Source: Nitrospiraceae bacterium
Lineage (GTDB): Bacteria > Nitrospirota > Nitrospiria > Nitrospirales > UBA8639
DNA length: 64,000 nucleotides
Reading direction: 5' to 3'
Assembly: GCA_020632635.1 (NCBI GenBank)
Contig: JACKFE010000002.1
Location: forward strand, 495,625-559,624
Below, one piece after another: positions 11,594 to 39,236 of the stretch. The position numbers and the translations under genes are program-made. Numbering within the stretch: position 1 is the stretch's first letter; each line of letters begins with the position of its first letter. The notes below the pieces were generated by a model that worked only from the letters and a program-made list of their open reading frames with translations, was not told the DNA's origin and made no database searches.

Positions 11594-13540
11594 ATGCCCC
11601 TACATCATGTCGTCGCCAAACTGTGTTTCGTGCTGACCATTGGACTGTTGACCACTGTAATCATCGCCCCGGCTTGGGCCACCGTCCCGATGAATTCGGT
11701 GACTTTGGACAAAGCCGCATATTTCCTCGGACCGGACGGCGAAACCATTCTATTGCAAGCAGGGGACTATTCTTTGGAACCCTTGGCCGATGGCCTCATG
11801 GTTCACCCAGCCGGAGACCAACAAACTATTGCCGTCCAAGGCTCCTTAAAACTCCATAACCTGGATCTACAGGAACCGGTAGCCACGTCGATCCCCGGAC
11901 AACCGGAGAGTGAAACCGCCGACAGACATATCTTGGCCCTGCTCCTCCCGGGAGGAATGACGGTCGAAGCTGACGGCACATACAGCGGCATCCGCTCACG
12001 TGCGGTCAGCCCGCAGGAACTCATCACGGACCCCATGACGGTCTACCTAGACAAACCAATCCATTTTCAATCGGCGGAAGACCAGGATATCGTTCCCCCG
12101 GTCGGCACCTACAATGTGGAATTAGCCGATCAGAAGATTCGTTTGATAGCCATGGATGGCAATGGGGATTTCCTGCTTGAGACTCAAAAAAGTTCCCACG
12201 AAGGCGGTCTACAAGTGCCTGTCGCCCTCTCACTCCCTGGGGCCGCGGGAGAGGAAGCAGACTTGCACTACGTCGTACTGCTGCTTCCCGATGGGGCGAA
12301 CTTCCAAGCCCTTGGAACGTATAGTGGCGTCCGTCCACGCGGACTATTCGACTTTGTCGGCAAGGCCGTCCAAAGTGCCGGTCGTGAGGTGAACAAATTC
12401 GGAAAAAATGCCGGGCGGACCATTCAACAAGCTAAGAAAACGGTGGACAATGCCACACGCCCCATCGGACAAACCATCAATAAGTCCGTGCAAGACGTGG
12501 GGAAAGGACTCGGTCAAGCCAAACAAAATCTTGATAAGGCCACCCGGCCTATCGGACAGGGTATCAACAAGGCCGCTCAAGACGTGGGAAAGGGTCTGAA
12601 TCAAGCCGGAAAAGATGTGGGACGATTTGCCCAGCAAGCCGCGCTGGAAGCTAAAAAGCAGGCAGAATGGTTGGCCAAACAAGCGGCGATGGGTGCGCTG
12701 GAAGTGGCCAAAGCCGCTTGCAAAGCCGGATTAACCGCCAGCCGGATTGCGGCTGACATTCAGGGAAGGATTCTGGGACCGATTATGGGTGCGTTAGCCA
12801 AGGCCTTCCAATTAGACAAAACCCAAACGGCTCTCCGCCAAGCGTTACAGGTCATTAAACAAAAACAAGGCCCCGCCATCCAGGAAGCAATCAATGCCGG
12901 CCTCACGATCACTGAACCCAAAAATCTCAAGACCGTCAAACAATTAATGGACCCCAACCAGATGTGCGAAAGCCCAGGGGCCACCGTTCAACACACATTC
13001 AAAACCATGATTGGGGCACCTCTTCGCGCAGCCCTCACCAAGTCACAAAACGCGAACCCATCTCCCATCCGCTCCCGTGGGACATTCGCCTCGGCCAACA
13101 TCGGAATCGGGGGCAATCTCGCCAAGGTGGGTGGAGGTGAGTTGGGCGTCAGTTATGCCTTTGACTTTGTGCATACACCCCATTGGTATCTGGACCTGGC
13201 CGCCATGCTCAAAACCAACGTAGGCGGCGGCGGTGGGGTCTCCATCGGAATTTTCCCAAAAGTGAATCCCGATGCCGTCGGCGGGTGGTTTCTCGGAGTG
13301 GGTGTCGGATTTCCATTTCCTCATCCCAAATTGGCAAAAGCCATGGATGCCGGCTTGGATGTCTTTTTCGAATTCCCCTTGCAAATTACCCCTCCCTTTA
13401 ATTTCAAGTGGAATTTGACATCTCCACAATTTTTCTTGGACCACTTTCAAGGATTCTCCGTGAGTGTAGGAGCCGGGAAGAGCGTCTCGCCTGTCGATAT
13501 TGCCCTGAAAGCCGGCGTGGGAATCAAGCTGACGAAATAA
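11594..13540 (+). CDS. Secreted protein with two tandem copies of the shared N-terminal module, K/Q/A-rich helical repeats and a Gly-rich C-terminal domain
   Basis: Signal peptide (…IIAPAWATVP). Module copy 1 is ~11699..12004 (ends GTYSGIRSRA) and copy 2 is ~12035..12343 (ends GTYSGVRPRG). Repeats of ATRPIGQxINKxxQDVGKGL. The C-terminus is similar to that of gene 27923..29293. Confidence 0.8.
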   Translation: MPLHHVVAKLCFVLTIGLLTTVIIAPAWATVPMNSVTLDKAAYFLGPDGETILLQAGDYSLEPLADGLMVHPAGDQQTIAVQGSLKLHNLDLQEPVATSIPGQPESETADRHILALLLPGGMTVEADGTYSGIRSRAVSPQELITDPMTVYLDKPIHFQSAEDQDIVPPVGTYNVELADQKIRLIAMDGNGDFLLETQKSSHEGGLQVPVALSLPGAAGEEADLHYVVLLLPDGANFQALGTYSGVRPRGLFDFVGKAVQSAGREVNKFGKNAGRTIQQAKKTVDNATRPIGQTINKSVQDVGKGLGQAKQNLDKATRPIGQGINKAAQDVGKGLNQAGKDVGRFAQQAALEAKKQAEWLAKQAAMGALEVAKAACKAGLTASRIAADIQGRILGPIMGALAKAFQLDKTQTALRQALQVIKQKQGPAIQEAINAGLTITEPKNLKTVKQLMDPNQMCESPGATVQHTFKTMIGAPLRAALTKSQNANPSPIRSRGTFASANIGIGGNLAKVGGGELGVSYAFDFVHTPHWYLDLAAMLKTNVGGGGGVSIGIFPKVNPDAVGGWFLGVGVGFPFPHPKLAKAMDAGLDVFFEFPLQITPPFNFKWNLTSPQFFLDHFQGFSVSVGAGKSVSPVDIALKAGVGIKLTK

Positions 13541-13723
13541 TAAATGTCCTTTTTTGAAACTGATAAAAAGGGCATCACGTCTTTCACGTGCCCCAGCACG
13601 CTTACAGTCATGGAACGAGACATTCTCTGTTATAATATCCATCAAACACCATCCATCCCGATGATCACCAAGGGAAAGGCTGGAAAATGGGCTTTTACTT
13701 CTTATTGCCTTGAGGAATGCTTT

Positions 13724-14500
13724 ATGACATGGATCAACACCCTTCGTTCATCCTTCGCTCTTACTTTGGCAACATGCCTGCTGACCTTCAACCCTATTCA
13801 AGCCTTGGCGGAGTCAGCATACACGCCCGATGATCCGGCGTTTGAGAAGGCTATAGAGAAGGTCGTTGAGAAGTACATAATTACCCACCCGGAGGTCATT
13901 GAACTCACCCTTCAAGGGTTACAGGCCAAACGGGAAGCGGAAAAACAGGACCAGATCCGCACAGTCATTGCAACCAAACAGGATGACCTGTTAAACGACC
14001 CCGACTCGCCCGTAAGCGGGAATCCCAATGGGGATGTGACCGTCGTGGAATTTTTTGACTACCGGTGTGGCTATTGTAAACGGGTCGCGGCTGCAGTGAC
14101 CCAGCTCCAAAAAGACGACCCAGAGGTACGTATTGTGTACAAAGACTTTCCCATTTTGGGAGAAGCCTCTGAACTCGCTGCTCGGGCGGCCCTGGCCGCT
14201 GGGTTACAGAACAAACATCTGGCGTTTCATGAAGCGTTATTGGCCAGTAAACACGAAGTCAACAAGAATGAACTGTTGCGAATTGCCAAGGAAGTCGGGC
14301 TTGACATCCAACGTCTTGAAAAGGATATGGCCAAACCCGAATGGGAAGCTGTGATCAAAAAAAACCGGGCTTTGGCCTCAGCCTTAGGTATCACGGGGAC
14401 ACCAGGCTTCATCGCAGGGACCGAACTCGTTCCAGGGGCTGTGAACCTAGATGGTCTGAAGTCACTTGTTTCCCAGGCACGAAATGTCTCACAACCCTAA
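13724..14500 (+). CDS. DsbA-family thiol:disulfide oxidoreductase (periplasmic)
   Basis: Start set at the internal ATG at 13724, giving signal peptide MTWINTLRSSFALTLATCLLTFNPIQALA. Thioredoxin-fold active site FFDYRCGYCKR. TGTPGF cis-Pro region. Confidence 0.8.
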   Translation: MTWINTLRSSFALTLATCLLTFNPIQALAESAYTPDDPAFEKAIEKVVEKYIITHPEVIELTLQGLQAKREAEKQDQIRTVIATKQDDLLNDPDSPVSGNPNGDVTVVEFFDYRCGYCKRVAAAVTQLQKDDPEVRIVYKDFPILGEASELAARAALAAGLQNKHLAFHEALLASKHEVNKNELLRIAKEVGLDIQRLEKDMAKPEWEAVIKKNRALASALGITGTPGFIAGTELVPGAVNLDGLKSLVSQARNVSQP

Positions 14501-15112: not shown

Positions 15113-15178
15113 CCCTGGGATGGCTTTCGGCACGGCTGTGATCCTCCTGAGATCAGGATCGCCTCAATGTTCTCTTCG
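15113..15178 (+). promoter_or_regulatory. Conserved ~65-nt 5'-region element, copy A (core GGCTGTGATCCTC)
   Basis: Aligns with 17390..17455 with an identical 13-nt core. It lies ~200 nt upstream of the start at 15345. The core plus flank (gatcctcctga) resembles an anti-Shine-Dalgarno sequence. Confidence 0.3.
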
Positions 15179-15344
15179 TGCATCCCTAGCCGGCCACTGA
15201 GTCTCTTGCCCTCGTGGCCATCGTTTGCTTGTCATTTTTCCTACTTTCCCCATTTCCTTAAGCCAGTGCTTCGATTTTGTGCAAGAACACTTCGGTTTAC
15301 CAACTTTATCTGTTTGGCTCATTTTTCCTTCAAAGGAGTCCGCA

Positions 15345-17219
15345 ATGTTTGGCCGTCTTCCTCTCTCTTGTCTAATCCTGGCTTCTTGTCTTGGTGTCCT
15401 GGCAGTAGGCGAAGTTCCTGTTATCTCAATCTCCCTGGCGGGTGAACACCCCTCAAAAGAGACGATTGAAGAGTTCACCCTGCCTGCCATTGAACTTCCC
15501 AGCTCCCTCCATTTTGAGGCACCTGATGGCAGGGAAATTCAAATTTCTGCGGGCACCTATGGATTGTTCTCCGATCAACCCTCTACCTTGACACTTCTTC
15601 CGGAATCGGACAGTGCCCCGACTACAATCCGGGCGGAGGAAATCATACTCGCCGAAGAACTCAGTGCTCCGGTTGCCAGAATACTCATAGAAAATGATCA
15701 GACGACACACCTCCTCCTCTTGTTACCGACTGGACAAGGGTTGGAGGCAATAGGGTCTGTCAGCCAGGTTACCTCACGAGGGAATTTTAGTTTTAATCGG
15801 AAAGCCAGTGCTTCAGCGATTAGCCAAACTCTGACAACACCCAATACTTCAGTTGCCTCTTCCTCAATACAGCGTGAGGCCGTCATAGGGAAATCTCCGG
15901 GAGAAACACTCATTCCCGACGGCCTTCCTACGGGGCTCCCAGGACAAGCACCATTTGGAGTCAGGGTATTGGGCGTCGTCTATGACCCCAAGGCTCCCAA
16001 CCGCCAAGGCCTTCGAGAATTGGTAAACCGACCGGAAATTCTTCGTCAAACCATCACAGCTGCGTGGGAATCTTCACGAAGCAACACCTGCGATGACCTG
16101 AGAGCTCGGTTAGGGCAGGGAGACCTCATCTATTCAGGGGTCACCCTGTATGACCTTGTCTGTAACATGGGGGAAATCACCGATTTTGCCATGCAATCCC
16201 AGGGTCCTTCTTCCGTCGTGTTGCACCTCAACATCCCCGGAAATTATTTGGAGTTTACGAGCACTACTCCCAGTGCCTTGGGAAGTTACGCGGATCCTCG
16301 GTTTTCCGTTCGATATGACCTGCGCGTCATGCTCACACTGTCCATTTCTGGTGGAGACCGCCTCATACGCGTCCAAAAGGCCGCCGCAAGCATCCAGAAC
16401 GCCAAATTGGACTCGCATGGTCTCGTCGGTGATTTGATCCTGACACTCGGGAATTTCTTCACCAATGGAAAACTCACTCCCCTCGCGGAATCCGCCTTGA
16501 ATAGCGCACGGGTTGATCTGACACGGCAAGTGAGCACAAAAATCGAGCCGGCCAATGCGCTGCTAAAAACGCCACCCGGCATGACCTATGCGGGGCGGTG
16601 GGTACGACGGAACACGCTCATTATCGTGTATGCTCCCCTGCCTGGTCCCCTCCCTCTTCAAAATGGGTGGGTGGCCGGTACCATACGATGGAAAAAAGAA
16701 TATGGGGCGACCAATCCCCCTTCCTGTTCGGGACTTTCGTTTAGGTCTACAGTCCAAACAGGGCCGGCCCCCCTTGAAGACCCGGATACCGGGTCCGTCG
16801 GACCGCCACCAACCAAAATCATCGATGGAAGCACCACCGCAGGCCCCTTCCTGGAACAAGGCGGGGAATATACCTGCGCTTATAAGGTGGCCGGATTGTT
16901 CGCCGGAATTCCGAACACTGTCCAGGGGCAAGCACGTGGTCTCACCACCGCGTTGCAATCCAACAACCAATTCTTGGTCACCGGGATAAAGATGGCCCCC
17001 AAAGGTTGGAATGGGCGCATCAATCCCACTCCCGGAACCGCCGGGAAAGATTTTTCCCTAGACCTGTTTATGACGAGTCCCGGCGTGGCTGTGATCACTG
17101 GGAAACAATTCGTGACCCCCAAAAACCCGGGCGATCCAGCTCCATTTCGCCGAGTGATTCAAGGTTCTGTCAAACGACAATCGGGCATTTTTCAACAAAC
17201 ACCGACATTACGCCGATGA
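15345..17219 (+). CDS. Secreted protein with the shared N-terminal module and a large uncharacterised C-terminal region
   Basis: ATG at 15345 is preceded by AAGGAG (15332-15337). Signal peptide MFGRLPLSCLILASCLGVLAVGE. The module ends LLLLPTGQGLEAIGSVSQVTSRG. Confidence 0.8.
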   Translation: MFGRLPLSCLILASCLGVLAVGEVPVISISLAGEHPSKETIEEFTLPAIELPSSLHFEAPDGREIQISAGTYGLFSDQPSTLTLLPESDSAPTTIRAEEIILAEELSAPVARILIENDQTTHLLLLLPTGQGLEAIGSVSQVTSRGNFSFNRKASASAISQTLTTPNTSVASSSIQREAVIGKSPGETLIPDGLPTGLPGQAPFGVRVLGVVYDPKAPNRQGLRELVNRPEILRQTITAAWESSRSNTCDDLRARLGQGDLIYSGVTLYDLVCNMGEITDFAMQSQGPSSVVLHLNIPGNYLEFTSTTPSALGSYADPRFSVRYDLRVMLTLSISGGDRLIRVQKAAASIQNAKLDSHGLVGDLILTLGNFFTNGKLTPLAESALNSARVDLTRQVSTKIEPANALLKTPPGMTYAGRWVRRNTLIIVYAPLPGPLPLQNGWVAGTIRWKKEYGATNPPSCSGLSFRSTVQTGPAPLEDPDTGSVGPPPTKIIDGSTTAGPFLEQGGEYTCAYKVAGLFAGIPNTVQGQARGLTTALQSNNQFLVTGIKMAPKGWNGRINPTPGTAGKDFSLDLFMTSPGVAVITGKQFVTPKNPGDPAPFRRVIQGSVKRQSGIFQQTPTLRR

Positions 17220-17659: not shown

Positions 17660-18865
17660 ATGATGACATTCTCCAGGTTTATGCGCTATGGAATGACCAC
17701 CGCAATTCTGACCACGGCGGTCTCCATTCCGGCTATCGCCTTTGTCGGACAAGACCCAACAATCATCCAACAGAGTTGTCAACTGACTCAGGTCTCGGCC
17801 CGGCTCGGTCCTGACGGCAGCACTCATTATTCTATCCTCGGAACTTGTAACGGCAGCTCAATCAGTGGGGAATTGGCCTATGCCTCCAACCATCAGACAG
17901 CCGAAAAATTTTCGTATCGAGGAGCCCAATTTACTACGAGGGCCATCTGTCCGGAAGACCCATGGATTTCCTCGACAACATGCGAAGACCAACAGGTTAT
18001 CGCAAAAGGGGCCGATCCCGGTTCCCTTCTTCAATTTCCAGTCCCCTTGTCCCGTCACGTCGTAAGGTCATCCGAGGTCTTTCAGCATGCAAAGACTCAT
18101 GCTACGAAGCCTAACCCACCAGGCCCACCGGTGAAAGCCAGAGCTGAGATTCGATTCGGCCGCAATACCACGGTCTTTTGGCTCGGTCCTGGCCAGGAAG
18201 GTCAATTCGGTCCGTATCTGAATTTTGTCGTAGAAGCTCGGCCGAAAGGGGCGGAAGGCGCAGCCTGGACCAGCCTTGGAGGCACGAAACGGCATACCGC
18301 TCCAGACTACCGACTATCAGTAAAACTGCCCGAACCAATTGCCGGGTTTCCAGGGTGGGAATTGCGGGCTTGCTCCACCACAGTATTAGCCAAGACCTGC
18401 ACCGGTCCGTTTATTCCCACACTCGCCGCTCTGTCCGATCGTCAGACGACAGAAAATGCGAAACGTCACACTTCCCCTCCTGTCACGGTCACGCCTCAAG
18501 CGACTATGAAAGTCCCCACGCCTCAACTTGGAGGTGCTCAAGGCTCAACTCCCCACACCCCTCCCGCGAGTAGTTCCTCTCCGCCACCGATTCGGTCGTT
18601 TGGAAAAGCCAAACCCTCTTCCCCCATAGATAGTACCGCCCTCAATCCGCAACCCTTACCCCCTAAATCCCTCGGAATCATACAGGCTCCATCGCCGGGG
18701 AGCTCGTCCGCCTTAAATCCACAACCACTTCCTCCGAAGTCTTTTGGTTTCGGAAAGATTCTGAGACGAGGCATACCGGAAGGGGAAACCTCCCCGGAGG
18801 AGTCGCAGGCTGAAAACGAACCAGCTTCGGATGGATCCATTTCTGAGGAAAAGAATTCACCATGA
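17660..18865 (+). CDS. Secreted protein with a C-terminal ALNPQPLPPKS repeat, an ILRRGI motif and an acidic tail
   Basis: 401 aa with a signal peptide (…AVSIPAIAFVGQD). C-terminus: SFGKAKPSSP...ALNPQPLPPKSLG...ALNPQPLPPKSFGFGKILRRGIPEGETSPEESQAENE. The stop overlaps the lnt start (ATGA). Confidence 0.75.
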   Translation: MMTFSRFMRYGMTTAILTTAVSIPAIAFVGQDPTIIQQSCQLTQVSARLGPDGSTHYSILGTCNGSSISGELAYASNHQTAEKFSYRGAQFTTRAICPEDPWISSTTCEDQQVIAKGADPGSLLQFPVPLSRHVVRSSEVFQHAKTHATKPNPPGPPVKARAEIRFGRNTTVFWLGPGQEGQFGPYLNFVVEARPKGAEGAAWTSLGGTKRHTAPDYRLSVKLPEPIAGFPGWELRACSTTVLAKTCTGPFIPTLAALSDRQTTENAKRHTSPPVTVTPQATMKVPTPQLGGAQGSTPHTPPASSSSPPPIRSFGKAKPSSPIDSTALNPQPLPPKSLGIIQAPSPGSSSALNPQPLPPKSFGFGKILRRGIPEGETSPEESQAENEPASDGSISEEKNSP

Positions 18866-20526: not shown

Positions 20527-20555
20527 CCGGTAGAACCGCATGCTTTAGTAGGAGA

Positions 20556-22376
20556 ATGAAAATGAGATGCTCTGGAATAACTCGAATTTCTCTTCTAATC
20601 GTATTTTTTTTGGGAAGCCTTGCTCCCCTTTCATCAACCTGGGGGAGGCTCGCCCCGTACGACGGCATTGGTGGGCCAGGGGGAAATCCATTTTCCTTGG
20701 AATGCGGGCAATCAGCGATCTTGGTCGGAATAATAGGCCGATCCGGTTCGGTGATCGATCAGCTTGGAGGGTTATGCGTCAAGATCGATCCCGCGTCAGG
20801 CACCTGGGTCGGCGGGGTGTATGAAACAGCTCGAGCTGGCGGCAACGGGGGAGTTCCCTTCAAACAGGTATGTTCGGTAGGCGAGGCCTTAGCGGGTATC
20901 GAGGGAGCGACACGTTATTTTAGCGGGACCCTCCTGGTCTCCTCGCTCAAAATCGTCTGTATCCGGTTGCGGATTCGAATCGAGGACCAGCCTTCCATCA
21001 TGGGATACCGTCTGGTTGGCATTTATGGTGATCACGATCCGTTAAAAACAAGTGCCCTACAAGACTTGTGCTACCCACTCCTCTCGGGAACCAACCGTTC
21101 ACAGGATCAATGGAGTCCTGTTGGACTCAAGCTAGAGGGCCGGTCTGGCGTATACCTTGATCGCATTCACATACACTGCGGAAGCCTCCCCTTCGCCAAA
21201 GAAGGCTACAAAATCACCTTTGCCGCCAAACCTTCTGGTGTCATCCCAGAAGGGACTCCCCTGAAAATTACTTGGAGGGCGACTGGACCGATTCCAGAGC
21301 TTACACCTCCCCTTCAAGCCAGTTGGGTCATATTGGACCACACCCATAGCCGATCAGGAGTCATCGGTTCTCAGCCCGCCAAGATGACGCAGCCCTGTGC
21401 CTTTGCCAAAGCACCTTGTATCGACTCGTGGACCTCTTCACTCTCCGGGTTTGAGGTGACGTTTCTAAACCTTCCTCCCGCCAAATACTCTATCGTAGTG
21501 ACCGTGAGACCAAACGCAGGTGGCAACCAATCAGAAGGTCAATGGGAATTCGAAGTCAAAGACAATATCCTGCGGAAGATCTCTCTGTCGCCAAACCCCA
21601 TTGGTAGTGGCAGCACTACCACTGCAACGTTTGAGTTGGTTGGCCCAGCCCCCCTAAGCGGAAAAACCATTTATCTTTCTAGCTCCAACTCGGAACTGGT
21701 TCCAATACCCGAAACCTTAGTCATCCCAGAAGGGACCACCTCAGCCACGCTTCTTCTCAAGGCCAACTCGTTGACACTTGCCGGACAAACGACGATCCGT
21801 GCCTCCACCCGCAAGCCGGTGAAGGCCCTGGTTCCCTATAGTGCAAACTCGAAAATTTTCCAACGAGGAATACCTGATACAAGAGAAATATCTGATCAGG
21901 CAGCCCCGGAGGAAGATGCGACAGAACATCAGGCTCCAATCTTGGAGGGTCCAGCCCCAGAGCCACTTCCCCTAACCGATGAGGAAAAATCCGTCCAGTC
22001 GCTAGAGGACAAAGAAGCCCAAGATGCTTCTCCGCTCGACTCCCAAGTGACTGAACGTGGCATTAAGAGTTTTGGGAAACGCAATCTTTCCTCCCCAACC
22101 TTGCCAATCCTTTCACTCAAACCCAATCAAGGAACGATGCGAACCACACCCGAGGGTGCCAAGACTCCACCCCCTCCAGGAGTTCCCATACCCTATCCTA
22201 ATATTCCAAAGGAAAATGTCCTCAGCGGACCCTCCTCGATTCAAGAAAGGATGAAAATTGATACCCAGACTTTATCGAGGCCTGGCTCCACGAAAGAAAT
22301 CATACTGACCGTTCAATCATCGGCAAATCGCATCAACCCAACACTCAGGCCTACATTGCCGTCATTACAAAAATAA
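20556..22376 (+). CDS. Secreted protein with an N-terminal jacalin-like lectin domain, Ig-like middle regions and a C-terminal FQRGI motif plus acidic/Pro-rich tail
   Basis: ATG at 20556 follows TAGGAG. Signal peptide MKMRCSGITRISLLIVFFLGSLAPLSSTWG. GGPGGNPFSLECGQSAILVGIIGRSGSVIDQLGGLC is similar to the C-terminal domain of gene 52575..53543. Confidence 0.75.
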   Translation: MKMRCSGITRISLLIVFFLGSLAPLSSTWGRLAPYDGIGGPGGNPFSLECGQSAILVGIIGRSGSVIDQLGGLCVKIDPASGTWVGGVYETARAGGNGGVPFKQVCSVGEALAGIEGATRYFSGTLLVSSLKIVCIRLRIRIEDQPSIMGYRLVGIYGDHDPLKTSALQDLCYPLLSGTNRSQDQWSPVGLKLEGRSGVYLDRIHIHCGSLPFAKEGYKITFAAKPSGVIPEGTPLKITWRATGPIPELTPPLQASWVILDHTHSRSGVIGSQPAKMTQPCAFAKAPCIDSWTSSLSGFEVTFLNLPPAKYSIVVTVRPNAGGNQSEGQWEFEVKDNILRKISLSPNPIGSGSTTTATFELVGPAPLSGKTIYLSSSNSELVPIPETLVIPEGTTSATLLLKANSLTLAGQTTIRASTRKPVKALVPYSANSKIFQRGIPDTREISDQAAPEEDATEHQAPILEGPAPEPLPLTDEEKSVQSLEDKEAQDASPLDSQVTERGIKSFGKRNLSSPTLPILSLKPNQGTMRTTPEGAKTPPPPGVPIPYPNIPKENVLSGPSSIQERMKIDTQTLSRPGSTKEIILTVQSSANRINPTLRPTLPSLQK

Positions 22377-22408
22377 CCACATATCTAACGAGGACCACCA
22401 ACAACCCC

Positions 22409-23080
22409 ATGAAATCCCTGGCCTTTCTTCTCCAAACCCTTCTCCTTCTATTCGTATTAGAAATCGTGTTGGCCAGTTCCTGGGCACACACAAGCCAAGG
22501 AATGGAATCTTCATCACCATATTCAGTCCTACAAATTGATCACCCGATGGAGTTCCAAATGGAGGACAATCAGATTGTTCATCTCCCGCCTGATACCTAC
22601 GCCGTCTTTTCCGATGAAGCAGATCGTCTTCACATTCGCTCCCTTTCTATCAATACCTCCTACAACATTCCTGCAAACCTCATCTCTCATCAGGAATCGC
22701 TTCGAATTCCCCTAGCCCTCGTCATTGTCGAATCGGATAAGAGCAGACATATCACCCTGCTACTCCCGGATGGCCGAGGGTTGGATGCTATCGGAACAAC
22801 AATCATGATTCAGAGTCGGGGAGTAGGTCCTGGAGCCTCTTTTCAATTTTCACGAGAAAAGCGCTATACCGGCGTCATCCTCCAACAAGGCCGTGTCGCC
22901 ACCGACAACGACTGGAACGAAAAGGACTCCGTTTCGTCTACCGGCCCCTCAGACCAACCGCCCGAATCAACGCCCTCCTACGGAAAGGTGACGTTAGACA
23001 AAGGCCGTTTTCAACTCGATAGAGACGCTCGTCGTGTCTTATTCAGGAGATGCAAGACATGTTGGAAGTCACAGCAATAA
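22409..23080 (+). CDS. Small secreted protein made of the shared N-terminal module and a short tail
   Basis: Signal peptide (…LEIVLASSWA). The module ends HITLLLPDGRGLDAIGTTIMIQSRG. Confidence 0.75.
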   Translation: MKSLAFLLQTLLLLFVLEIVLASSWAHTSQGMESSSPYSVLQIDHPMEFQMEDNQIVHLPPDTYAVFSDEADRLHIRSLSINTSYNIPANLISHQESLRIPLALVIVESDKSRHITLLLPDGRGLDAIGTTIMIQSRGVGPGASFQFSREKRYTGVILQQGRVATDNDWNEKDSVSSTGPSDQPPESTPSYGKVTLDKGRFQLDRDARRVLFRRCKTCWKSQQ

Positions 23081-23343
23081 ACCATGAGACCCAGATAAAT
23101 CCCGGGCAAATGGCGCCGCTGATTCAAGGACAGCCAAAACGCCCCCTCCTGCGCATGCCGAGGGTTGGACCTGGGGCCATACGGCGACGCGGAATCGAGG
23201 GCGAACAACCGGATAACAGCACGAGTGAACAACCACCGACGGAACCCGGACATCGAAAGGAGAAGGCCCCCCGGGTGAATAAGCCCTTGACCGGAATGGA
23301 TCTGAATGAACTCAGGTTTCTGATCGCTGAGGAGAGCCAGTAG
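23050..23343 (+). CDS. Possible small ORF, or a frameshifted C-terminal extension of the preceding gene, carrying IRRRGIEGE and an acidic tail
   Basis: It contains the island-wide motif (AIRRRGIEGEQPDNSTSEQPPTE) but has no signal peptide of its own. It overlaps the end of 22409..23080 in another frame. Confidence 0.35.
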   Translation: MQDMLEVTAINHETQINPGQMAPLIQGQPKRPLLRMPRVGPGAIRRRGIEGEQPDNSTSEQPPTEPGHRKEKAPRVNKPLTGMDLNELRFLIAEESQ

Positions 23344-23424: not shown

Positions 23425-23856
23425 ATGCGTCACACAATGGCGGTTCTTGCAGTCGGCATCGCTATCTGGTTCTTCGGTCTGCCCCTCAACGCGCAGGCAA
23501 AACCCAAGTCCCAAGTCTTCGGGTGCACAACGGCAGATCTCAATACGAACTTCGGATCATCATGTACCCATCAAGCGGAGCAGGATATTTTGCAGGGACA
23601 TTCCTATATTCATATCTTGGTGTGTGAAGGCGGCCAGATGAAGTGCTGCACAATTAGCTCGACGAATCAAATCCAAACTTGTCGAAGACCAGCTGGTTCT
23701 GCCGCGTTGTTAGGGGGGGTCAACAAATTCAATCAGGGTCAGGTGTTCAGACGCGGAATCGAGAGCGAAGAGGAAGCCGACGAAGAAACGACGATTCCAA
23801 CATGGCTGACGGAGTCCTGGTTAAAAGAGCATGAAGGAGAAAAGCCGTCGAAGTAA
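23425..23856 (+). CDS. Small Cys-containing secreted protein with a C-terminal FRRGIESEEEADEE tail
   Basis: 143 aa. Signal peptide MRHTMAVLAVGIAIWFFGLPLNAQA. Six Cys in the mature part. RRGI plus acidic tail motif. Confidence 0.7.
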   Translation: MRHTMAVLAVGIAIWFFGLPLNAQAKPKSQVFGCTTADLNTNFGSSCTHQAEQDILQGHSYIHILVCEGGQMKCCTISSTNQIQTCRRPAGSAALLGGVNKFNQGQVFRRGIESEEEADEETTIPTWLTESWLKEHEGEKPSK

Positions 23857-27922: not shown

Positions 27923-29293
27923 ATGACCTTCCCGCAACCCAAACAACTTTTGTATTCGTTGCTCGCCTGCGTATCGTTGCAGGCCGGTCTTCCTTTCGCT
28001 CACGCCTCAGTGCCGGATGAGACAACGACCATCACACTGGACAAAGCCGTTCACTTTTTAGGGACGGACGGCAGCGATGTCGTGGCTAATCCAGGGGAAT
28101 ACAGCGTCGAAACGGCGCAGGAATGGCTCCGGCTCATTCCAGGCACTCAACGCCGGGACGCCCTCCTAATCGAATCGCAAAAAGGTACCCATGAAGTCGG
28201 TGTCGAAGTGCCGATCGTGATCTCCACACCAGGGACCGAACCTGATGCATTAGACGTACACGTGGTCCAATACCTGAACCCGGATGGCACCAGTCTGGTC
28301 GCCACAGGCACATATAGCGGGATTCAATCCCGTGGACTCTTCGATGCCGCCAAGAAAGCCGCCGCCCAAGCTAGAGCAAGAGCCGAAGCAGCCAGACGGG
28401 CAGCAGCCGCGAAAGCAGCGGCGGCGGCAGCGAAAGCCAAACAGGTGGCTGAAGCGGCTCGCATGGCTGCCTTGAAGGCCAAACAAGAAGCGGAACGGAT
28501 CGCCAAAGAAGCCGCCGCCCAAGCCACTCAACTGGCCAAAATTGCGGCTTGCAAGGCAACGGTCGGTGCCTTAAAGGCCGGAAAAGCTGTGGCGACGTTC
28601 ATGCAACAAGTTATCCCCACCGCTAAACAACGGAAGACCAGCGCTGACAACAGCTTTAAACACGATGCCAACTTCCGGGATCAATTACTGTCGCAAATCA
28701 CCAATAAGCTTCAGGCCCACCAGCAAAAAGTCCCGGAATTAAAGCGAATCGCGATCGCCATGAATAACCCCCAAAACCGGGCAAAACTGGATGCCATTTT
28801 CGGAACCGATCAATTCTGTACGGATTCCATTGGAGAGATGCAGCGAAAACTCATTCAGGCCGGCTTGGCTCCAAACTTTGCCTTGATTCAAAGCCGAGGA
28901 GTTGATGATCCCCACTTTTATATTGGCTATCAAATCACCCTGGGCGGTGGTGTTGCAGCAGGCGCGCAAGCCGGGTTGATGGGAGTCGTGGATTTTCATG
29001 GCAATGGGGGAAAATATTGGTTCATCGGACCCCAGGCCATTACCAATGCCGCCGTGGGCTTAACCGCGGAGGTGGCCTTTTATCCTAGTGTGCCGCTGAG
29101 CTCCTTTGATGGATGGGGAGCCGGTGTGGGCATTTCTGCGGGTCCACCATCCAAAATTGTTTCCGGTGCTGTAGATGTGATGCTGGACGAGACCGTCAAG
29201 AAGTTTCAGGGCTTCGGATTTGGTCCTGGAGTCGGAGTCGGCCTTTCACCGGTTGATGGGGCCTTCTCCTACACCCATTCCTGGAAGTATTAA
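27923..29293 (+). CDS. Secreted protein with the shared N-terminal module, an Ala/Lys-rich helical region and a Gly-rich C-terminal domain
   Basis: Signal peptide (…GLPFAHASVP). The module ends LVATGTYSGIQSRGLFD. AAKKAAAQARARAEAARRAAAAKAAAAAAKAK. The C-terminus is similar to that of gene 11594..13540. Confidence 0.8.
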   Translation: MTFPQPKQLLYSLLACVSLQAGLPFAHASVPDETTTITLDKAVHFLGTDGSDVVANPGEYSVETAQEWLRLIPGTQRRDALLIESQKGTHEVGVEVPIVISTPGTEPDALDVHVVQYLNPDGTSLVATGTYSGIQSRGLFDAAKKAAAQARARAEAARRAAAAKAAAAAAKAKQVAEAARMAALKAKQEAERIAKEAAAQATQLAKIAACKATVGALKAGKAVATFMQQVIPTAKQRKTSADNSFKHDANFRDQLLSQITNKLQAHQQKVPELKRIAIAMNNPQNRAKLDAIFGTDQFCTDSIGEMQRKLIQAGLAPNFALIQSRGVDDPHFYIGYQITLGGGVAAGAQAGLMGVVDFHGNGGKYWFIGPQAITNAAVGLTAEVAFYPSVPLSSFDGWGAGVGISAGPPSKIVSGAVDVMLDETVKKFQGFGFGPGVGVGLSPVDGAFSYTHSWKY

Positions 29294-30439: not shown

Positions 30440-31258
30440 TTAAGGGAGGGGAATCTCTCTGAGGACAGGGTTACCTTGATTCTGCTTGATGGCCTCCTCC
30501 TCAACCCTATCAGCCTCTGTCTGTGTTTGATTCTTCCCTGACATTGGCGGAATGGCTGCCGGAGGCGATTGATCTTCCTGAAGCGGAGAAGGGTTTTCTT
30601 GCCCCGGCTGAAAGCTTTGGACAGGAGGCCAGCCTTCCTGCTCCTTGGGGGTATATAGCCGATGCACTTCTTTGTTTATTTCTTCTACAACGTATTCATG
30701 CCTCAGAGCCTTGGAGGAGCCGGTTCCCGGAGTGTCGTAAAGGATATGGCCTTTCCGGATACTCACAACCGGCAGCCCATCGTTTCCATATACCAGATCC
30801 TCGATAATCCGAAACCGTCCAGACGGACAATCCACTATAGGACAATCAATGGCTGTATTCTGATGAACAAACAGAAGATCCCGGCTTCCTACCTGGAATT
30901 GGGGTATATGGGAAACCTCCAAGTACCGGCCATCGGATGCCTGTCCGCCCAAAAATCGCAGCGTTAAATGAGTCCCTTCTGCAGAACGCCCTTTCAGCAA
31001 ATATTCGATTCGATAAGTAACATATGTCGAGGGTACAACATTGGGAGCATCAGGACTTTCTCGACTCTCACGAAATTCCAGTTTCTCCACCGTTCCCGAA
31101 AAAATAAATCCGGCCTCTTTCACCATGTAGGAGAGGGACGGTTCCGAGCCCGGCTCCCTCATCACCCCCTGGCTATACCCAGGATGTCCCAGTATCAGCG
31201 TCCAGGCTACCACAACCAGGATGAGTGGGGATCCATAGGCAGGCCTCGCATTACACAT
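30440..31258 (-). CDS. Secreted protein, paralog family A (CPxVDCxxGRFR domain plus a P/E-rich tail)
   Basis: 272 aa with a signal peptide. TYVTYRIEYLLKGRSAEGTHLTLRFLGG...DCPIVDCPSGRFRII aligns with gene 32620..33780. Confidence 0.7.
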   Translation of the reverse strand: MCNARPAYGSPLILVVVAWTLILGHPGYSQGVMREPGSEPSLSYMVKEAGFIFSGTVEKLEFRESRESPDAPNVVPSTYVTYRIEYLLKGRSAEGTHLTLRFLGGQASDGRYLEVSHIPQFQVGSRDLLFVHQNTAIDCPIVDCPSGRFRIIEDLVYGNDGLPVVSIRKGHILYDTPGTGSSKALRHEYVVEEINKEVHRLYTPKEQEGWPPVQSFQPGQENPSPLQEDQSPPAAIPPMSGKNQTQTEADRVEEEAIKQNQGNPVLREIPLP

Positions 31259-31443: not shown

Positions 31444-32532
31444 CTAATTGATCCGAATCCCCACATACGAGGAATTATTCGCCTCATTGCTTTCCGCAAT
31501 GGCGTTATCGGGATCAATGATCGCGCCTATGTGGTAATTAGCCCCACTCGTTAAATCATTGGGAATCGTAAGAGTGGTATTTTTCGTGGTATACACGGTG
31601 TTTCGACACACCGAAACACTGCCGGTGCCAATATGCCGGTCCCAGGTCGTAATCAGATCATTGGTTGAAATATAGTATTTCACTGGAACATTATTCTTGC
31701 ATCCTGATCCCAAGTTTTCATACGACATTTCAAGGCGTATTGGTTGGCCTTTGTTTACACGATATCGTGGTTCGCCTGCATCATTGAACGAAGACACCAC
31801 ACTCGTTCCCGCCGAATTCCAAACCCTGGTCCGTGCATGGGTGCTGTATTCTCCACTGGATCCGGTCCATCGCCAATGGGCGATGGCCACATCATTGGTA
31901 TTGTTATCGTTTCCGTACAGATCGACGGCGCCGTTACTGGCATCTTCTCCGGGATAAGCATACGCGGTAGAGCCGTTCGCATGCATATGGGTGCTATCTG
32001 AACCCATCGCGTTATAGGTATAGGACACGTGCTTCAGCCCAAGCGCATGGCCCAATTCATGAACGGCGACCGTCTGAAAGGAGCGAGAACCTCCTCCATA
32101 CCCCGAGAGGGTCTTTTTGTTATGGGTATAGTGGTAAGGCGTGGTGTTTCTAAAGACCACATCCGCTTCAACCAGATGCCCGGTCAAACAGGTATACCAA
32201 TAGTAGGCCACGGCCGGAGCATTCAGGTTGTCCGTCCACCAGACTTCATTTTGGAAATTCCCCTTTCCCACCCCCGGTTCGTTATAGCTCAACGTGAAGG
32301 TAAATTTGCTGGGATTTTGGTTCCAAAGGTTAATTGACTCCGTCAAGGCATTTCTCCAGGGTCCGGCCGGGAATCCTGTACCGGACGCTCGCATCTGCAC
32401 CGAATTAGATCCCCATTTCTGTGTGATCCCGGCACATTTAATTTTCTCGTATGAATGACCCACCGCCGGGGAACAAACCGTGACCAGTAGAGACAACAAC
32501 ACAAAATGTTTGATTTTCATTTCTTCCTCCAT
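31444..32532 (-). CDS. Secreted metzincin-type zinc metalloprotease with a C-terminal CARDB-like domain
   Basis: Signal peptide. HELGHALGLKH (HExxHxxGxxH), with NAMG downstream. The C-terminus ends ...IIDPDNAIAESNEANNSSYV, typical of CARDB. Confidence 0.75.
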   Translation of the reverse strand: MEEEMKIKHFVLLSLLVTVCSPAVGHSYEKIKCAGITQKWGSNSVQMRASGTGFPAGPWRNALTESINLWNQNPSKFTFTLSYNEPGVGKGNFQNEVWWTDNLNAPAVAYYWYTCLTGHLVEADVVFRNTTPYHYTHNKKTLSGYGGGSRSFQTVAVHELGHALGLKHVSYTYNAMGSDSTHMHANGSTAYAYPGEDASNGAVDLYGNDNNTNDVAIAHWRWTGSSGEYSTHARTRVWNSAGTSVVSSFNDAGEPRYRVNKGQPIRLEMSYENLGSGCKNNVPVKYYISTNDLITTWDRHIGTGSVSVCRNTVYTTKNTTLTIPNDLTSGANYHIGAIIDPDNAIAESNEANNSSYVGIRIN

Positions 32533-32619: not shown

Positions 32620-33780
32620 TCAGGGTTGGAGATTTCCCATAGGCCCTGGATCCTCCTCGCCATCGAATAGCATATTTCCTTCCAACGGCAGGATTTCCTC
32701 TTCTTCCGCTCCTCCCGACTCAATCCCGCGTGGAATGACACGAAGAGGCTTTTGGATTTTAAGATTCGGAAGTAGTGGCCGTTGAATTTCCAAGTTCGGT
32801 TTGATCTGCAAATTGGGCTTCAATCCGCCTGGAGGCCCTTCTTTGAACACGGGATTCATGGCATTTTTCATCAACCATTCAGCTTCTTGTTTATCGAACT
32901 CATTCAAAGGGGCAGCCTCCGGTCGCTCAGGCGCCACTCGCATAGTGGGAGCCTGAGGAGAATGAGGGCGAAGTTTCAACGCCTGGCCTGGCCGCATACT
33001 CTGGACCGGTTTCAGCGCCGCGAGTTTTTCCGGCCGGATTTTGGCTTTTTCCTGGGCCACACGATCTCGGAATTTGAGCATATTTAAATGCTCCCCTGGA
33101 ATTCTCAACTGTTCGCCTTGGTTATATTGCCCCTTGCCTTGTTCTGCTCCCTCCGCGTCATCAGGGTCAATTTCAAAATTAAACGGCAAATTGCCGATCT
33201 TATTATTCATCACCTCAGGCAGCCGATGTTGTTTGCCAAAGAAGATATTTCCTTGAGCTGTCAGTCTGACTTCATGCCCGTCATTGGTAAACATGTGATT
33301 ATTGATCACCCGGAAACGCCCCTTGTCGCAGTCGACCAAAGGACAGTCCGACTCTCCGTTACTTTGGACAAACACCAAATCCCGTTCCCCCACATCAAAC
33401 AGAGGGGAATTCGACACAACCAGAATACGGCCATCCTTGGCCGGTCCACCCAAAAAGCGCAGCGTTACGTTTTTACCTTCGGTGGCTTGTCCCTTTTCGA
33501 TATTTTCAATTTGATAGGTCACAAATGTTTGGGGCAGCTCGCCTTCTTCCGATTCGGTTCCTTGAGCCATCCCGTATTCCACCTTCGAAACCACTCCTTG
33601 AAAAATCAGTTCGGCCTGATCGGTCATGGTCCTCAAGCTTGTTCGCGGCGGTTCATGGGCATGCGCGACTGGGTTGAAGCAGGCGACTCCTGCCACTGCC
33701 AATGCCGTGATCCATCCCATGGTGGAGATAGCTCTTCTTGTCTGACTGTGTTCTCTAACCATTGTGTTGCTCCTTCTCAA
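32620..33780 (-). CDS. Secreted protein, paralog family A, with a C-terminal LQIKP repeat, IPRGIESGG motif and acidic tail
   Basis: 386 aa. TFVTYQIENIEKGQATEGKNVTLRFLGG...DCPLVDCDKGRFRVI. Tail: KPNLQIKPNLEIQRPLLPNLKIQKPLRVIPRGIESGGAEEEE. Confidence 0.7.
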   Translation of the reverse strand: MRRSNTMVREHSQTRRAISTMGWITALAVAGVACFNPVAHAHEPPRTSLRTMTDQAELIFQGVVSKVEYGMAQGTESEEGELPQTFVTYQIENIEKGQATEGKNVTLRFLGGPAKDGRILVVSNSPLFDVGERDLVFVQSNGESDCPLVDCDKGRFRVINNHMFTNDGHEVRLTAQGNIFFGKQHRLPEVMNNKIGNLPFNFEIDPDDAEGAEQGKGQYNQGEQLRIPGEHLNMLKFRDRVAQEKAKIRPEKLAALKPVQSMRPGQALKLRPHSPQAPTMRVAPERPEAAPLNEFDKQEAEWLMKNAMNPVFKEGPPGGLKPNLQIKPNLEIQRPLLPNLKIQKPLRVIPRGIESGGAEEEEILPLEGNMLFDGEEDPGPMGNLQP

Positions 33781-36962: not shown

Positions 36963-37145
36963 GGCCGGTCGCCTTCCGACTCACAAATACAAATAATGAA
37001 ACTCTTTTGGCTAGCCTACCATGAACTTTTCCATAATTCTCTTTTCCGTCATTGCTTTTTCCGCAAAGTCGACTACAATGATCCCTCGACGGTTTGGGAC
37101 GGTCCCACTTTCTGTTCATGGGATTTTTCACCACAGGAGTAGGAC

Positions 37146-37667: not shown

Positions 37668-37770
37668 CCCCATGCCAATATTTAAAAAGTATAGAAAGAC
37701 TCAGCCAACACTCGCGGGATACCGTGCAGATATCCCGGTCTATCCATCATCAAACTCAAGGAGGTTGCAC

Positions 37771-38298
37771 ATGAGAGGGAAAATCCTGACCGGATTTCTT
37801 GCTCTGATTGCTCTTGGATTATTGGCCCTGAATGTTCAGGTCAGTAACGCACACAAATGGGGCAATTGGCATTGGGACAAAAGCACCATCAACATGTGGG
37901 TGTATGGGAGCAAACAAACCGAATCGAAAGCCGCCATTAAAGATTGGGATGACCATACCGACCTCAAGCTCCCATTAAAATCATCGCATACCGATGTCAG
38001 TGTCTTCGGGGCCAATGCGGGCAATACGGGCTGGGCGGGCCTGGCCTCCATCAAAGAATACGAATTTGATTGGTGGGATAAATGGTGCTGGTGCAGGATT
38101 AAACATGCCCATGCACAATTTAACACCTATTACAATTATTCAAGCGCCAGCGTGCAGGGTGTGCAATGTCAGGAAGTGGGGCATACATTCGGGCTGGACC
38201 ATAGTGCAACCAATGGATGCATGGCGAAAGGCTATTACAGCCCCAACTCGAATTACACCAACAGTCACAATTGGTCTGACATTAATTCGATGTATTAA
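37771..38298 (+). CDS. Small secreted metzincin-like (snapalysin/M7-M10-like) protein with an atypical QExxHxxGxxH motif
   Basis: ATG at 37771 follows AAGGAGG. Signal peptide MRGKILTGFLALIALGLLALNVQVSNA. The motif is VQCQEVGHTFGLDHS, with Gln where the first zinc-ligand His is expected. Confidence 0.55.
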   Translation: MRGKILTGFLALIALGLLALNVQVSNAHKWGNWHWDKSTINMWVYGSKQTESKAAIKDWDDHTDLKLPLKSSHTDVSVFGANAGNTGWAGLASIKEYEFDWWDKWCWCRIKHAHAQFNTYYNYSSASVQGVQCQEVGHTFGLDHSATNGCMAKGYYSPNSNYTNSHNWSDINSMY

Positions 38299-38357
38299 CC
38301 ACGCAAGGGCACCTGGTAGATCACTCAATGATCGTACACACCACAAGGAGAGCACCT

Positions 38358-39236
38358 ATGAACTCGAACTCTTTCAATCGGTTTCTTCAAGGAACCATTG
38401 CGATCTTGTTTCTGGCCTTTGCCGGACAAGTCGGATATCAATATGCGTTCCATAAACCCGAACCGGTCCTGATGGCGGCCTGGGCGTTTGAACCTCGTAA
38501 TCTTGCAGAGGCCAAAGGGTTGGCTCAAGAGGTTGTTGAAGCCCAAGTTACCAATATTGAGCGTGCCGATGACTTAGTCATTCCTGCTCCGGGAGAGCCC
38601 GGGAATGTTGAACGAATTGCCATTGAAGTCGTCAGTATGAAGGTCAAGGGGGCCATGAAAGGACAGCCGGCCCAAGACATTCAAGTTTTCCGGACGGCTG
38701 GCATTCCTGTCACCCGGAATGACATGCCGAACATGAAGGATGCCCCGCCCAAACCCAGAGGAGCGTCCAATCCCCCCTCTCGACCGACCCCATTCGTGGC
38801 GAACACCATTAACATTCATGATGACCAAGCGTACAAGGTAGGGGAAAGTTACGTCATGTTTTTACGTAATGGCCCTCAAGTCAAGGTAAAAGGCCAAAAA
38901 GTCGCCACAAAAATTCTGTTAAATCCCAGCACACGGTTCCGGGTTGAACCAGACAATAGAATCACCCCAACTATTCCTGACGGACTGGGGCAATCTTTTA
39001 AGGGAAAGGCGTTGCAGCAATTTAAAGCCGACATTCAGCAAATTACGGAACGGGCTCCAATCCCAGGGAAACTTCCTGGCCAATTCGTTCTACCCAAGCT
39101 TCAGATCAAACCGGGTATCCAACCAGGTCTGATTCGGCCAAGAGGCCTAGAAGGGGCACCAGCTCCGGAAGGCATGGAGGAGGAATTGGGGGAAATGGAA
39201 GTACCTACGGAGGGTGAAGCTCCCGAGCTCCAATAA
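38358..39236 (+). CDS. Secreted protein, distant member of paralog family A, with a LQIKP motif, RPRGLEG and an acidic tail
   Basis: ATG at 38358 follows AAGGAG. Signal/anchor segment TIAILFLAFAGQVGYQYA. Tail: LPKLQIKPGIQPGLIRPRGLEGAPAPEGMEEELGEME. Confidence 0.65.
   Translation: MNSNSFNRFLQGTIAILFLAFAGQVGYQYAFHKPEPVLMAAWAFEPRNLAEAKGLAQEVVEAQVTNIERADDLVIPAPGEPGNVERIAIEVVSMKVKGAMKGQPAQDIQVFRTAGIPVTRNDMPNMKDAPPKPRGASNPPSRPTPFVANTINIHDDQAYKVGESYVMFLRNGPQVKVKGQKVATKILLNPSTRFRVEPDNRITPTIPDGLGQSFKGKALQQFKADIQQITERAPIPGKLPGQFVLPKLQIKPGIQPGLIRPRGLEGAPAPEGMEEELGEMEVPTEGEAPELQ

Follow-up and report, generated by a model that had tools for sequence, protein, structure and literature searches.

The window analyzed here is a stretch of 64,000 nucleotides from a Nitrospiraceae bacterium (GenBank assembly GCA_020632635.1, contig JACKFE010000002.1, positions 495,625 to 559,624 of the forward strand). 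From ~11.6 kb to 60 kb, it contains an island of genes for proteins with signal peptides, most of which belong to no Pfam or NCBIfam family. A short linear motif of six residues, (I/V)-x-x-R-(G/A)-(I/V/L/F), recurs in these proteins next to an anionic segment, which takes one of four forms: a β-structured module of ~105 amino acids (aa) after the signal peptide, an N-terminal peptide of 20–30 aa, an internal spacer between two motifs, or a Glu/Pro-rich C-terminal tail of 14–49 aa (motif and tail together are herein called the tag). Nitrospirales are key nitrite oxidizers in soils, oceans, and wastewater plants, and, to our knowledge, almost nothing is known about how their exported proteins are matured or sorted. 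In the full-text literature searched, no description of the motif, the module, or the tag was found for Nitrospira.

The acidic module

The module is a domain of ~105 aa located directly after the signal peptide. Twelve copies, which are 24–53% identical, occur in 11 genes of the window:

11678..12013, + strand: first module copy of gene 11594-13540, ends IRSRAV at 11990-12007 (from the alignment)
12026..12349, + strand: second module copy of gene 11594-13540, ends VRPRGL at 12329-12346, followed by a Lys-rich helical region
15477..15794, + strand: module of gene 15345-17219, ends VTSRGN at 15768-15785
22523..22822, + strand: module of gene 22409-23080, ends IQSRGV at 22808-22825
28022..28345, + strand: module of gene 27923-29293, ends IQSRGL at 28322-28339; ten strands in the structure model, motif in the coil after the last strand
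40299..40613, + strand: module of gene 40218-41390 (DUF928 cargo), no motif, ends GSTHAPPSGP
46152..46496, + strand: module of gene 45927-48167, ends VRPRGF at 46446-46463
48309..48626, + strand: module of gene 48219-50288, ends IRPRGG at 48600-48617
50420..50728, + strand: module of gene 50309-52495, ends IQSRAI at 50705-50722
52665..52982, + strand: module of gene 52575-53543, ends LRSRGT at 52956-52973
54500..54811, + strand: module of gene 54410-57484, ends LTSRGI at 54782-54799
57771..58094, + strand: module of gene 57693-59861, ends LRSRGT at 58065-58082

An earlier note on this DNA had described a shared motif at the module end. All peptides quoted in it were found at their places, and in the window alignment, 11 of the 12 copies end in [ILV]-x-[SP]-R-[GA]. 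Its extent was drawn too narrowly, from 11990 to 39236, as instances continue to ~58.1 kb. The copy that lacks the motif belongs to a DUF928-linked subfamily (also seen in the related loci L015, L023, L036, L037, L038, and L042), which has GS[TS]xxPP instead of the Arg-Gly motif and is hence a natural negative control for processing experiments.

The C-terminal edge of the module was compiled from 188 copies. It reads G(187)-[TS]-Y-S-G-[IV]-[RQ]-[SP]-R(176)-[G120/A42]-[LFTIV], where the numbers are counts, and the sequences diverge thereafter. The residue before the Arg is Ser, Pro, or Thr in 159 of these copies, and the residue after the Gly/Ala varies (L37 F28 T22 I19 V18 A8). In the AlphaFold2 (AF2) model, the module is an all-β domain of ten strands with a predicted local distance difference test (pLDDT) score of 87, and the motif lies in the coil that follows the last strand. 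This model and those below, computed for window and P-series sequences, are predictions. A Foldseek search of the module model against the PDB gave no meaningful match (best E 0.036, template modeling [TM] score ≤0.37). In scans of all module- and tag-bearing proteins, no Pfam or NCBIfam match to the module was found, and most cargo and the tag are likewise without a family. The cargo that follows module and motif consists of unrelated C-terminal regions, with weak, subcutoff matches to EEP, crystallin, cytochrome c, and lectin; the DUF928 match is solid. A metzincin of 982 aa (AAHEFGHTLGLDH) carries an N-terminal module in two further loci (L059:2315-5263, − strand; L076:1-2214); thus, the module can stand in front of a protease in the manner of a prodomain.

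An exhaustive profile search with the module returned 1023 representative clusters at E ≤0.001 and 777 at E ≤1e-10, with the domain starting near residue 30 in almost all members. Profile searches that were confined to proteins of about the length of the query returned 30 short proteins for the module and nine fragments for the tag and are uninformative on breadth. When 185,579 species, each represented by one genome, were scanned with two peptide patterns of the module, which were derived from a five-sequence subset of the 12-sequence alignment, 49 confirmed loci were obtained, all from Nitrospirota (Nitrospirales or Nitrospira). Database names of homologues are those of proteins from Nitrospirales or Nitrospira metagenome-assembled genomes, and exact copies of window proteins are found on scaffolds of the ENA "WANG18" metagenome and on contig JAGQKA010000006.1 of NCBI assembly GCA_020430345.1. 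The motif was found so far only in exported proteins of Nitrospirales; since the scan patterns themselves contained the motif, this restriction holds for canonical members only. L-numbers denote related loci, which were taken with flanks of ≤10 kb each and in which gene calls and the signal-peptide test are crude.

Tags, N-terminal instances, and internal pairs

The same Arg-Gly motif is located near the C terminus of exported proteins that lack the module. The window contains the following instances:

18758..18862, + strand: tag of gene 17660-18865, ILRRG followed by IPEGETSPEESQAENE..., 30-aa acidic tail
23179..23340, + strand: tag of ORF (open reading frame) 23050-23343, IRRRGIEGEQPDN...
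23743..23853, + strand: tag of gene 23425-23856, VFRRG followed by IESEEEADEE..., kept in the orthologues of L019, L038, and L040
27449..27562, + strand: tag of gene 24206-27565, IRKRG followed by IDEAPSHEPEAE..., kept in the orthologues of L032, L040, and L041
32623..32739, − strand: tag of gene 32620-33762, VIPRG followed by IESGGAEEEE...
39132..39233, + strand: tag of gene 38328-39236, IRPRG followed by LEGAPAPEGMEEE..., orthologues in L006, L010, and L033

Herein, the C-terminal RG[IL] with an acidic tail that the earlier note had reported for module-less proteins is confirmed in genes 17660, 23425, 24206, 32620 (− strand), and 38328, where it lies 31–36 aa from the C-terminal end. ORF 23050 also has motif and acidic tail, as had been noted. 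What it encodes is just a C-terminal remnant, derived from a family of small Cys-rich tagged proteins: a tblastn search with L042_4985 matches 23080-23247 only. The module gene 22409 overlaps this ORF, which corresponds to the last ~60 aa, with the tag, of a Cys-rich protein family of 170–180 aa (22409-23343); the overlap is probably a deletion or fusion scar. Gene 24206-27565 has a weak, below-cutoff match to CehA/McbA metallohydrolases and no Pfam family. In gene 17660, a tandem ALNPQPLPPKS[LF]G repeat is located directly upstream of the tag.

From 36 tags, the logo G-A-[IV]-[MLR]-[RSKP]-R-G-[IV]-E-[GS]-E-[QE]-P was obtained, followed by a tail of median length 25 aa. The Arg is present in all, Ile or Val is found at position −3 in 35 of 36, Glu at +2 after the Gly in 32 of 36, and Arg or Lys before the conserved Arg in 20 of 36. 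The tails contain 24% Glu (26% Asp/Glu), 13–14% Pro, and 13% hydrophobic residues, and their net charge averages −5.3. The tag is borne by no fewer than nine unrelated families, including the large 24206 family, the 32620/38328 family next to the metzincins, a family of trypsin-fold S1 proteases, and small Cys-rich proteins. A DsbA-like oxidoreductase gene often adjoins the small Cys-rich tagged proteins (window 13544-14500; L062, L068, L069, L071, L072, L086, L087, L089, L093, and L094), which suggests that these are disulfide-rich secreted peptides.

In an independent metagenome scan at the DNA level, the pattern [IV]-x-R-R-G-[IV]-E-G-E-Q-P matched 36 stretches. It was contained in 27 ORFs, in 24 of which it lies 14–34 aa from the stop codon; the other three are nonterminal chance matches, two of them in spurious ORFs of high GC content. 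The 36 tag-anchored metagenome loci contain module genes in eight cases, DsbA in ten, and the S1 protease in seven. Tagged genes and module genes are grouped in islands.

The N-terminal form consists of a signal peptide, an acidic stretch of 20–30 aa, and G-E-[VI]-x-E-R-[GA]-[VIL]. It was counted 25 times, versus 2.5 in shuffles, in 17 protein clusters. One small protein (L042_2920) combines such an N-terminal acidic peptide and its motif with a C-terminal tag. A further short motif, [IV]-R-D-H-R, is located behind the N-terminal one (ERG[IV]IRDHRG...) in L038:4157-5617, L019:462-2096, L040:4705-6336, and their relatives; it recurs after a module in L040_4705 (LVRDHRG, IVRDHRA). Pairs of motifs around an acidic or neutral spacer are found in window gene 20439, the 45927 family, L012_50, L039_14410, P0070, and P0072. 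The N-terminal and internal instances of the window are:

44789..44950, + strand: N-terminal form of the ricin-B lectin lipoprotein 44705-45373, acidic stretch and then VKSRGL at 44933-44950
21855..22064, + strand: motif pair of gene 20439/20556-22376, IFQRGI, an acidic spacer of 64 aa, VTERGI, and then basic KSFGKRN
47355..47438, + strand: internal pair of gene 45927, TQSRGI, a spacer of 16 aa, and IVSRGF; the pair is kept in the orthologues of L005, L006, L009, and L014
13067..13084, + strand: internal motif IRSRGT of gene 11594, directly before a Gly-rich C-terminal β domain; the Arg column is invariant in the family alignment
28886..28903, + strand: internal motif IQSRGV of gene 27923, between a helical region and a C-terminal β domain; R325 is invariant

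The internal copies at 13067-13084, 28886-28903, and 47355-47438 had been listed in the earlier note, and the N-terminal instance in gene 44705 had been missed. Gene 20556 had been described as a C-terminal form; its motif lies 170 aa from the end and is one of the pair around the acidic spacer. In the family of genes 27923 and 11594, R137, G138, and R325 are present in every one of 21 sequences with an identity of only 23–79%. Besides tag or motif, genes 17660-18865 and 20439-22376 share I[KR]SFGK[AR]xxSSP, which had been reported correctly.

The motif as a proposed junction signal

The module-end form and the tag form represent one motif, as had been proposed. Both share [IV] at −3, the Arg, [GA], and a hydrophobic residue, and in homologues with tandem modules, the "...SRGIP" end of the first module runs into an acidic stretch, just as in the C-terminal form. 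An artefact, i.e., a compositional chance match, a repeated DNA element, or a recombination site, had to be considered since the motif definition of the earlier note was degenerate and post hoc and since module ends are homologous and hence nonindependent. The comparison with shuffled sequences that the note itself had named speaks against it. With 1000 residue shuffles per pattern, RG[IL][EDP] was observed nine times in the window against a shuffle mean of 1.8 and [ILVF].[SPRKQ]RG[ILVF] 18 times against 1.3, numbers that none of the shuffles reached. Among the 612 genes that were roughly called in 49 related loci, RG[ILV][ED] was found 51 times, with 19 expected, and 30 times within 10–40 aa of the C-terminal end, with ~1.4 expected. 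Permuted controls (GR.., reverse, KG.., RA.., RS..) gave one to four instances near the C-terminal end versus 35 for the motif. In the crude set with signal peptides, 151 motifs compare with 33 in shuffles (4.6-fold), and the remainder, which still holds secreted proteins with mis-called starts, shows 2.1-fold. Furthermore, the conserved Arg is encoded by each of the six Arg codons, and three codons occur for Gly. Hence, the motif is conserved at the protein level, and this codon diversity rules out a DNA-level repeat or recombination site. Given also that the independent metagenome search again found the tag at C termini, an artefactual origin is very improbable.

The motif always lies in a predicted linker at a charge switch with the acidic piece on the outer side. 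The mean net charge of the module is −8.4 (187 of 188 copies are negative), and that of the 40 aa following the last module is +7.1 (91% positive). The 40 aa upstream of tags have a mean net charge of +2 and contain 13.6% Pro. In the AF2 model of full-length 27923, residues 321–328, which include R325-G326, are the only interdomain segment with a pLDDT below 50; a Foldseek search of this full-length model against the PDB gave no meaningful match. At module ends, model confidence for the motif residues is intermediate (~64–78). The motif is thus located in an exposed, Pro/Gly-rich linker where the anionic segment meets the rest of the protein.

This placement could be explained with no trans-acting reader. 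The motif would then be a structural cap or linker that ends the module fold or insulates acidic from basic segments, and the acidic pieces would be permanent solubility or charge appendages. Its position directly after the last strand with intermediate confidence, and its constant presence at the charge switch, fit this explanation. However, the pattern occurs in the module-less families as well, within unconserved, disordered sequence and at N-terminal, internal, and C-terminal positions, where a fold cap would be needless, and a charge boundary alone would not require an invariant Arg-Gly with Ile/Val at −3. A purely structural role is therefore considered improbable. Self-cleavage by the module was not favored either because of its absence from those families.

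That one short motif is found at the boundaries of nonhomologous exported proteins suggests a shared reader, which could be a protease or a recognition machinery. The six-residue footprint, the exposed linker, the independence of protein family, the N-terminal, paired internal, and C-terminal positions, and the acidic piece on the outer side together argue for a shared endoproteolytic maturation site. We consider it about an even chance that the motif is such a junction signal of Sec-exported proteins, probably cut after the Arg and thereby freeing anionic pro-segments. Conservation is highest at the Arg and the following small residue, and the next, hydrophobic residue is variable at module ends; hence, the Arg is the putative P1. 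S4–S2′ recognition by an Arg-specific endopeptidase would be expected to give such a six-residue footprint around an invariant Arg with a small residue behind it. In such a mechanism, the protein would be exported with its anionic pro-segment or pro-segments attached, and these may keep cargo that is cationic or membrane-active in a soluble or harmless state. A single endopeptidase that recognizes an extended footprint (P4 Ile/Val, P1 Arg, P1′ Gly/Ala, P2′ hydrophobic) would then cut after the Arg, and the mature protein would be released.

Among known systems, the sites of kexin/furin-type proprotein processing resemble the motif in being short, containing basic residues, and lying in linkers of many unrelated secretory proteins in N-terminal, paired internal, and C-terminal positions. 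As in eukaryotic precursors with connecting peptides and in pro-defensins, acidic spacers lie between two sites, and an anionic pro-segment lies beside a cationic mature part; by analogy, the paired motifs around acidic spacers would have the layout of excised connecting peptides. Unlike in these systems, the proteins are bacterial and periplasmic or extracellular, the dibasic R-x-[KR]-R or KR/RR is replaced by a single Arg followed by Gly/Ala with Ile/Val at −3, and cleavage is predicted. Thrombin- and LanP-type recognition uses a hydrophobic P4, Pro or Ser at P2, Arg at P1, a small P1′, and a hydrophobic P2′. V-I-P-R-G-I, I-R-P-R-G-L, and V-R-P-R-G-F match this footprint residue for residue, which is an analogy of specificity only, as the one S1 family in the islands has Ser189 and not Asp189.

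Instead of a cleavage site, motif and acidic flank could be a docking or sorting signal for export, outer-membrane translocation, or surface attachment, in which a transpeptidase of the C14/PorU/GPI (glycosylphosphatidylinositol) transamidase clan might swap the tail for a surface polymer. The C-terminal form does have the layout of a sorting signal: a globular domain, a Pro-rich spacer, a short signature, and a tail of restricted length, with the tag pattern at the C terminus in most metagenome ORFs, with tagged and module genes in islands, and with genes for C14 (clan CD) lipoproteins or exported C14 proteins near some of these. In this respect, it resembles the sortase, exosortase, rhombosortase, and archaeosortase signals (LPXTG, PEP-CTERM, GlyGly-CTERM, PGF-CTERM), which are likewise lineage-restricted C-terminal signatures on unrelated exported proteins, have a low-complexity spacer and a restricted tail, and whose genes are often clustered; such signals lie within ~20–50 aa of the C terminus, and here, too, the signature is near the C-terminal end of many unrelated exported proteins. 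All of these signals differ from the tag, whose tail is acidic and disordered and has neither a transmembrane helix nor a basic C-terminal cluster. Moreover, the motif is also found near N termini, at module ends, and in internal pairs, which C-terminal transpeptidation cannot explain, and no conserved machinery gene was found across the loci. A sorting signal is hence a possible but unlikely alternative to the maturation site.

The C-terminal domain of type IX secretion, a folded β-sandwich of 70–100 aa, does not correspond to the tails either, which are far shorter, rich in Glu and Pro, and match no Pfam or NCBIfam model. Polymorphic toxins have boundary motifs such as VENN in CdiA, PT-TG, and others (Zhang et al. 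2012, PMC3482391). Like them, the module-bearing proteins combine a constant N-terminal part, a short boundary motif, and variable C-terminal domains, and many paralogues per genome are grouped in islands. Unlike them, the constant part is the acidic β module after a Sec signal peptide and not a trafficking domain of the T5SS/FHA (type V secretion system), T6SS (type VI), T7SS (type VII), RHS, or PVC kind, conservation is at the protein level only (24–53% identity of the modules), and the motif also occurs without the module. PEXEL (RxLxE/Q/D), which is a cleavage site, and RxLR-dEER resemble the motif as short Arg motifs tens of residues after a signal peptide, in large effector families and with an acidic stretch; organisms, sequence pattern, and position rules differ, so that this is an analogy only. 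Since the defining features of each of these systems (dibasic site, transmembrane helix, basic tail, known trafficking domain) are lacking, the motif is regarded as a putative junction signal for cleavage or sorting that is not a member of any named family.

Candidate readers and neighboring genes

Two metzincin-type genes lie in the island:

31444..32532, − strand: metzincin (HELGHALGLKH) with a CARDB domain; Pfam Peptidase_M10 3.7e-6, CARDB 7.6e-8; between the tagged 32620 and the untagged 30440 paralogues
37672..38298, + strand: small metzincin-like protein with QEVGHTFGLDH; Pfam Peptidase_M10 4e-5, at the cutoff; followed by the tagged 38328 family

The earlier note had put these two forward as readers, which would cut Gly|Ile/Leu in a matrixin-like manner. 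Matrixin substrates have a small P1, a hydrophobic P1′, and Pro at P3, so that the "PRG|L/I" variants fit; both genes are present, each beside a tag-bearing paralogue (32620 and 38328, respectively), and a module-bearing metzincin exists (L059_2315). Herein, however, the link to the motif turned out to be weak. The best-conserved residues are the Arg and the Gly/Ala, whereas the would-be P1′ is variable. The first protein has an intact HExxHxxGxxH zinc site (VHELGHALGLKH). In the 37672 family, this signature is not found, as Gln replaces the first zinc-binding His; the Gln is kept in all three orthologues, which all have a tagged neighbor, and is hence a selected variant and not a sequencing error. 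Homologues of either window metzincin were found in none of the 36 tag-anchored metagenome loci and in eight of the 49 module-anchored loci. Two tag-anchored loci contain a different, module-bearing metzincin, and the L059 metzincin, carrying the module itself, looks like cargo. Cleavage by the window metzincins is therefore quite unlikely. The product of 31444-32532 is a candidate reader or partner; since metzincins are regularly located beside tag-bearing paralogues, they may be partners or cargo.

These paralogues (window 30440-31258 and 32620-33762, − strand; 38328-39236, + strand) share an N-terminal domain and always flank the metzincin genes. Two of them, 32620 and 38328, are tagged, and 30440 stops before the tag. 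They could be protease partners or inhibitors.

The C14 family is generally specific for basic P1 residues. A Peptidase_C14+DUF4384 protein with a signal peptide is encoded ~5 kb left of the window, and in the Nitrospira sp. DJ lineage, the gene of a C14 lipoprotein immediately precedes that of the 27923 orthologue. The candidates L054:3405-5705 (− strand) and L036:826-2121 match Pfam Peptidase_C14 at 3.6e-25 and 5.5e-39, respectively, and have YSGHG and DSCHSG, the His/Cys dyad of a caspase-fold domain, as well as a signal peptide. For candidate readers, peptides that contain the motif are provided as potential substrates: GAIMRRGIEGEQP; GTYSGIRPRGLFD; EVQERGVIRDHR.

Several points weigh against a maturation site. 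Cleavage itself, the bond that would be cut, and the role of the acidic pieces are what we infer; of the common processing or recognition site proposed in the earlier note, the short linear motif across nonhomologous exported proteins at module and domain boundaries is the part that stood. The near-constant tail length and the Pro-rich upstream spacer are also typical of sorting signals. No protease co-occurs consistently with the motif across the related loci: C14 genes are present in only some of them, four of which are ~95% identical, such that this association is patchy, and a crude regular-expression scan of 1092 neighborhood ORFs revealed no S8 peptidase, the family of the kexin/furin convertases. 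The most recurrent protease of the islands, the S1 family that includes L038:4157-5617, itself carries an N-terminal motif and a tag. Its Ser189/Gly216/Ala226 do not form a basic-specific pocket, and its N-terminal motif lies ~50 aa before the catalytic domain, where a cut would not produce a classical activated N terminus; it was hence set aside as an Arg-specific reader and looks like cargo. In addition, many of the related loci are orthologous, and the counts overstate the number of independent events.

Tentatively, and with more doubt than the maturation site itself, the findings can be extended to a secretome-wide "proprotein code" of Nitrospirales. In this view, the motif would be read by a dedicated convertase with specificity for Arg, perhaps a clan-CD C14 peptidase that is exported and acts as a hydrolase or even as a sortase-like transpeptidase. 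It would strip hundreds of effector-like proteins of their anionic pro-segments, one of these segments being the 105-aa acidic β prodomain, a fold without a solved relative. Such a system would be the bacterial counterpart of eukaryotic prohormone/proprotein conversion. The motif defines a large, unannotated class of the secretome, which comprises the module family of more than 1000 clusters and many proteins without the module, among them proteases, lectins, putative membrane-active proteins, and small proteins rich in disulfides. Should the motif serve in processing or sorting, mature protein termini could be predicted genome wide, a missing enzyme or machinery would be indicated, and two families, module and tag, would be ready to be modeled for Pfam/NCBIfam. 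The layout of anionic prodomain and cationic cargo hints at a reservoir of latent effectors, antimicrobial or lytic in nature, that would bear on competition within nitrifying biofilms.

Further genes are found in and around the island. A cluster of genes for the exported Peptidase_C14+DUF4384 protein, an extracytoplasmic function (ECF) sigma factor, a zf-HC2 anti-sigma factor, and three DUF4384 proteins borders it (L054:3405-9033, ~1–7 kb left of the window start; window 245-2265). A TPR + β-barrel protein, present in four loci, was considered as a Slam/T11SS (type XI secretion system) component and rejected, having a weak, below-cutoff TPR_Slam match and no DUF560 match. Proteins with Sec signal peptides and parts of phage or T6SS spikes are encoded at window 53685-54314, 43966-44535, 45476-46012, and 29386-29892 and at L010:11038-12657. 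They include, in the window, a truncated VgrG-like gene (Phage_GPD) and, in L010, a full VgrG-like protein of 539 aa (GPD + Phage_base_V) with a signal peptide; the export of VgrG-like proteins is unusual. The others are coiled-coil proteins of ~180 aa, one with weak, below-cutoff gp5_C/DUF2345 matches, and the 43966/45476 family is represented in 15 loci by 21 members. Finally, window genes 41727-43073 and 61223-62314 (− strand) encode paralogues with twin-arginine-type leaders (RREFLK, SRRGFLW), which are present in nine module loci and whose sole family match is a weak, subthreshold one to T4 gp19.

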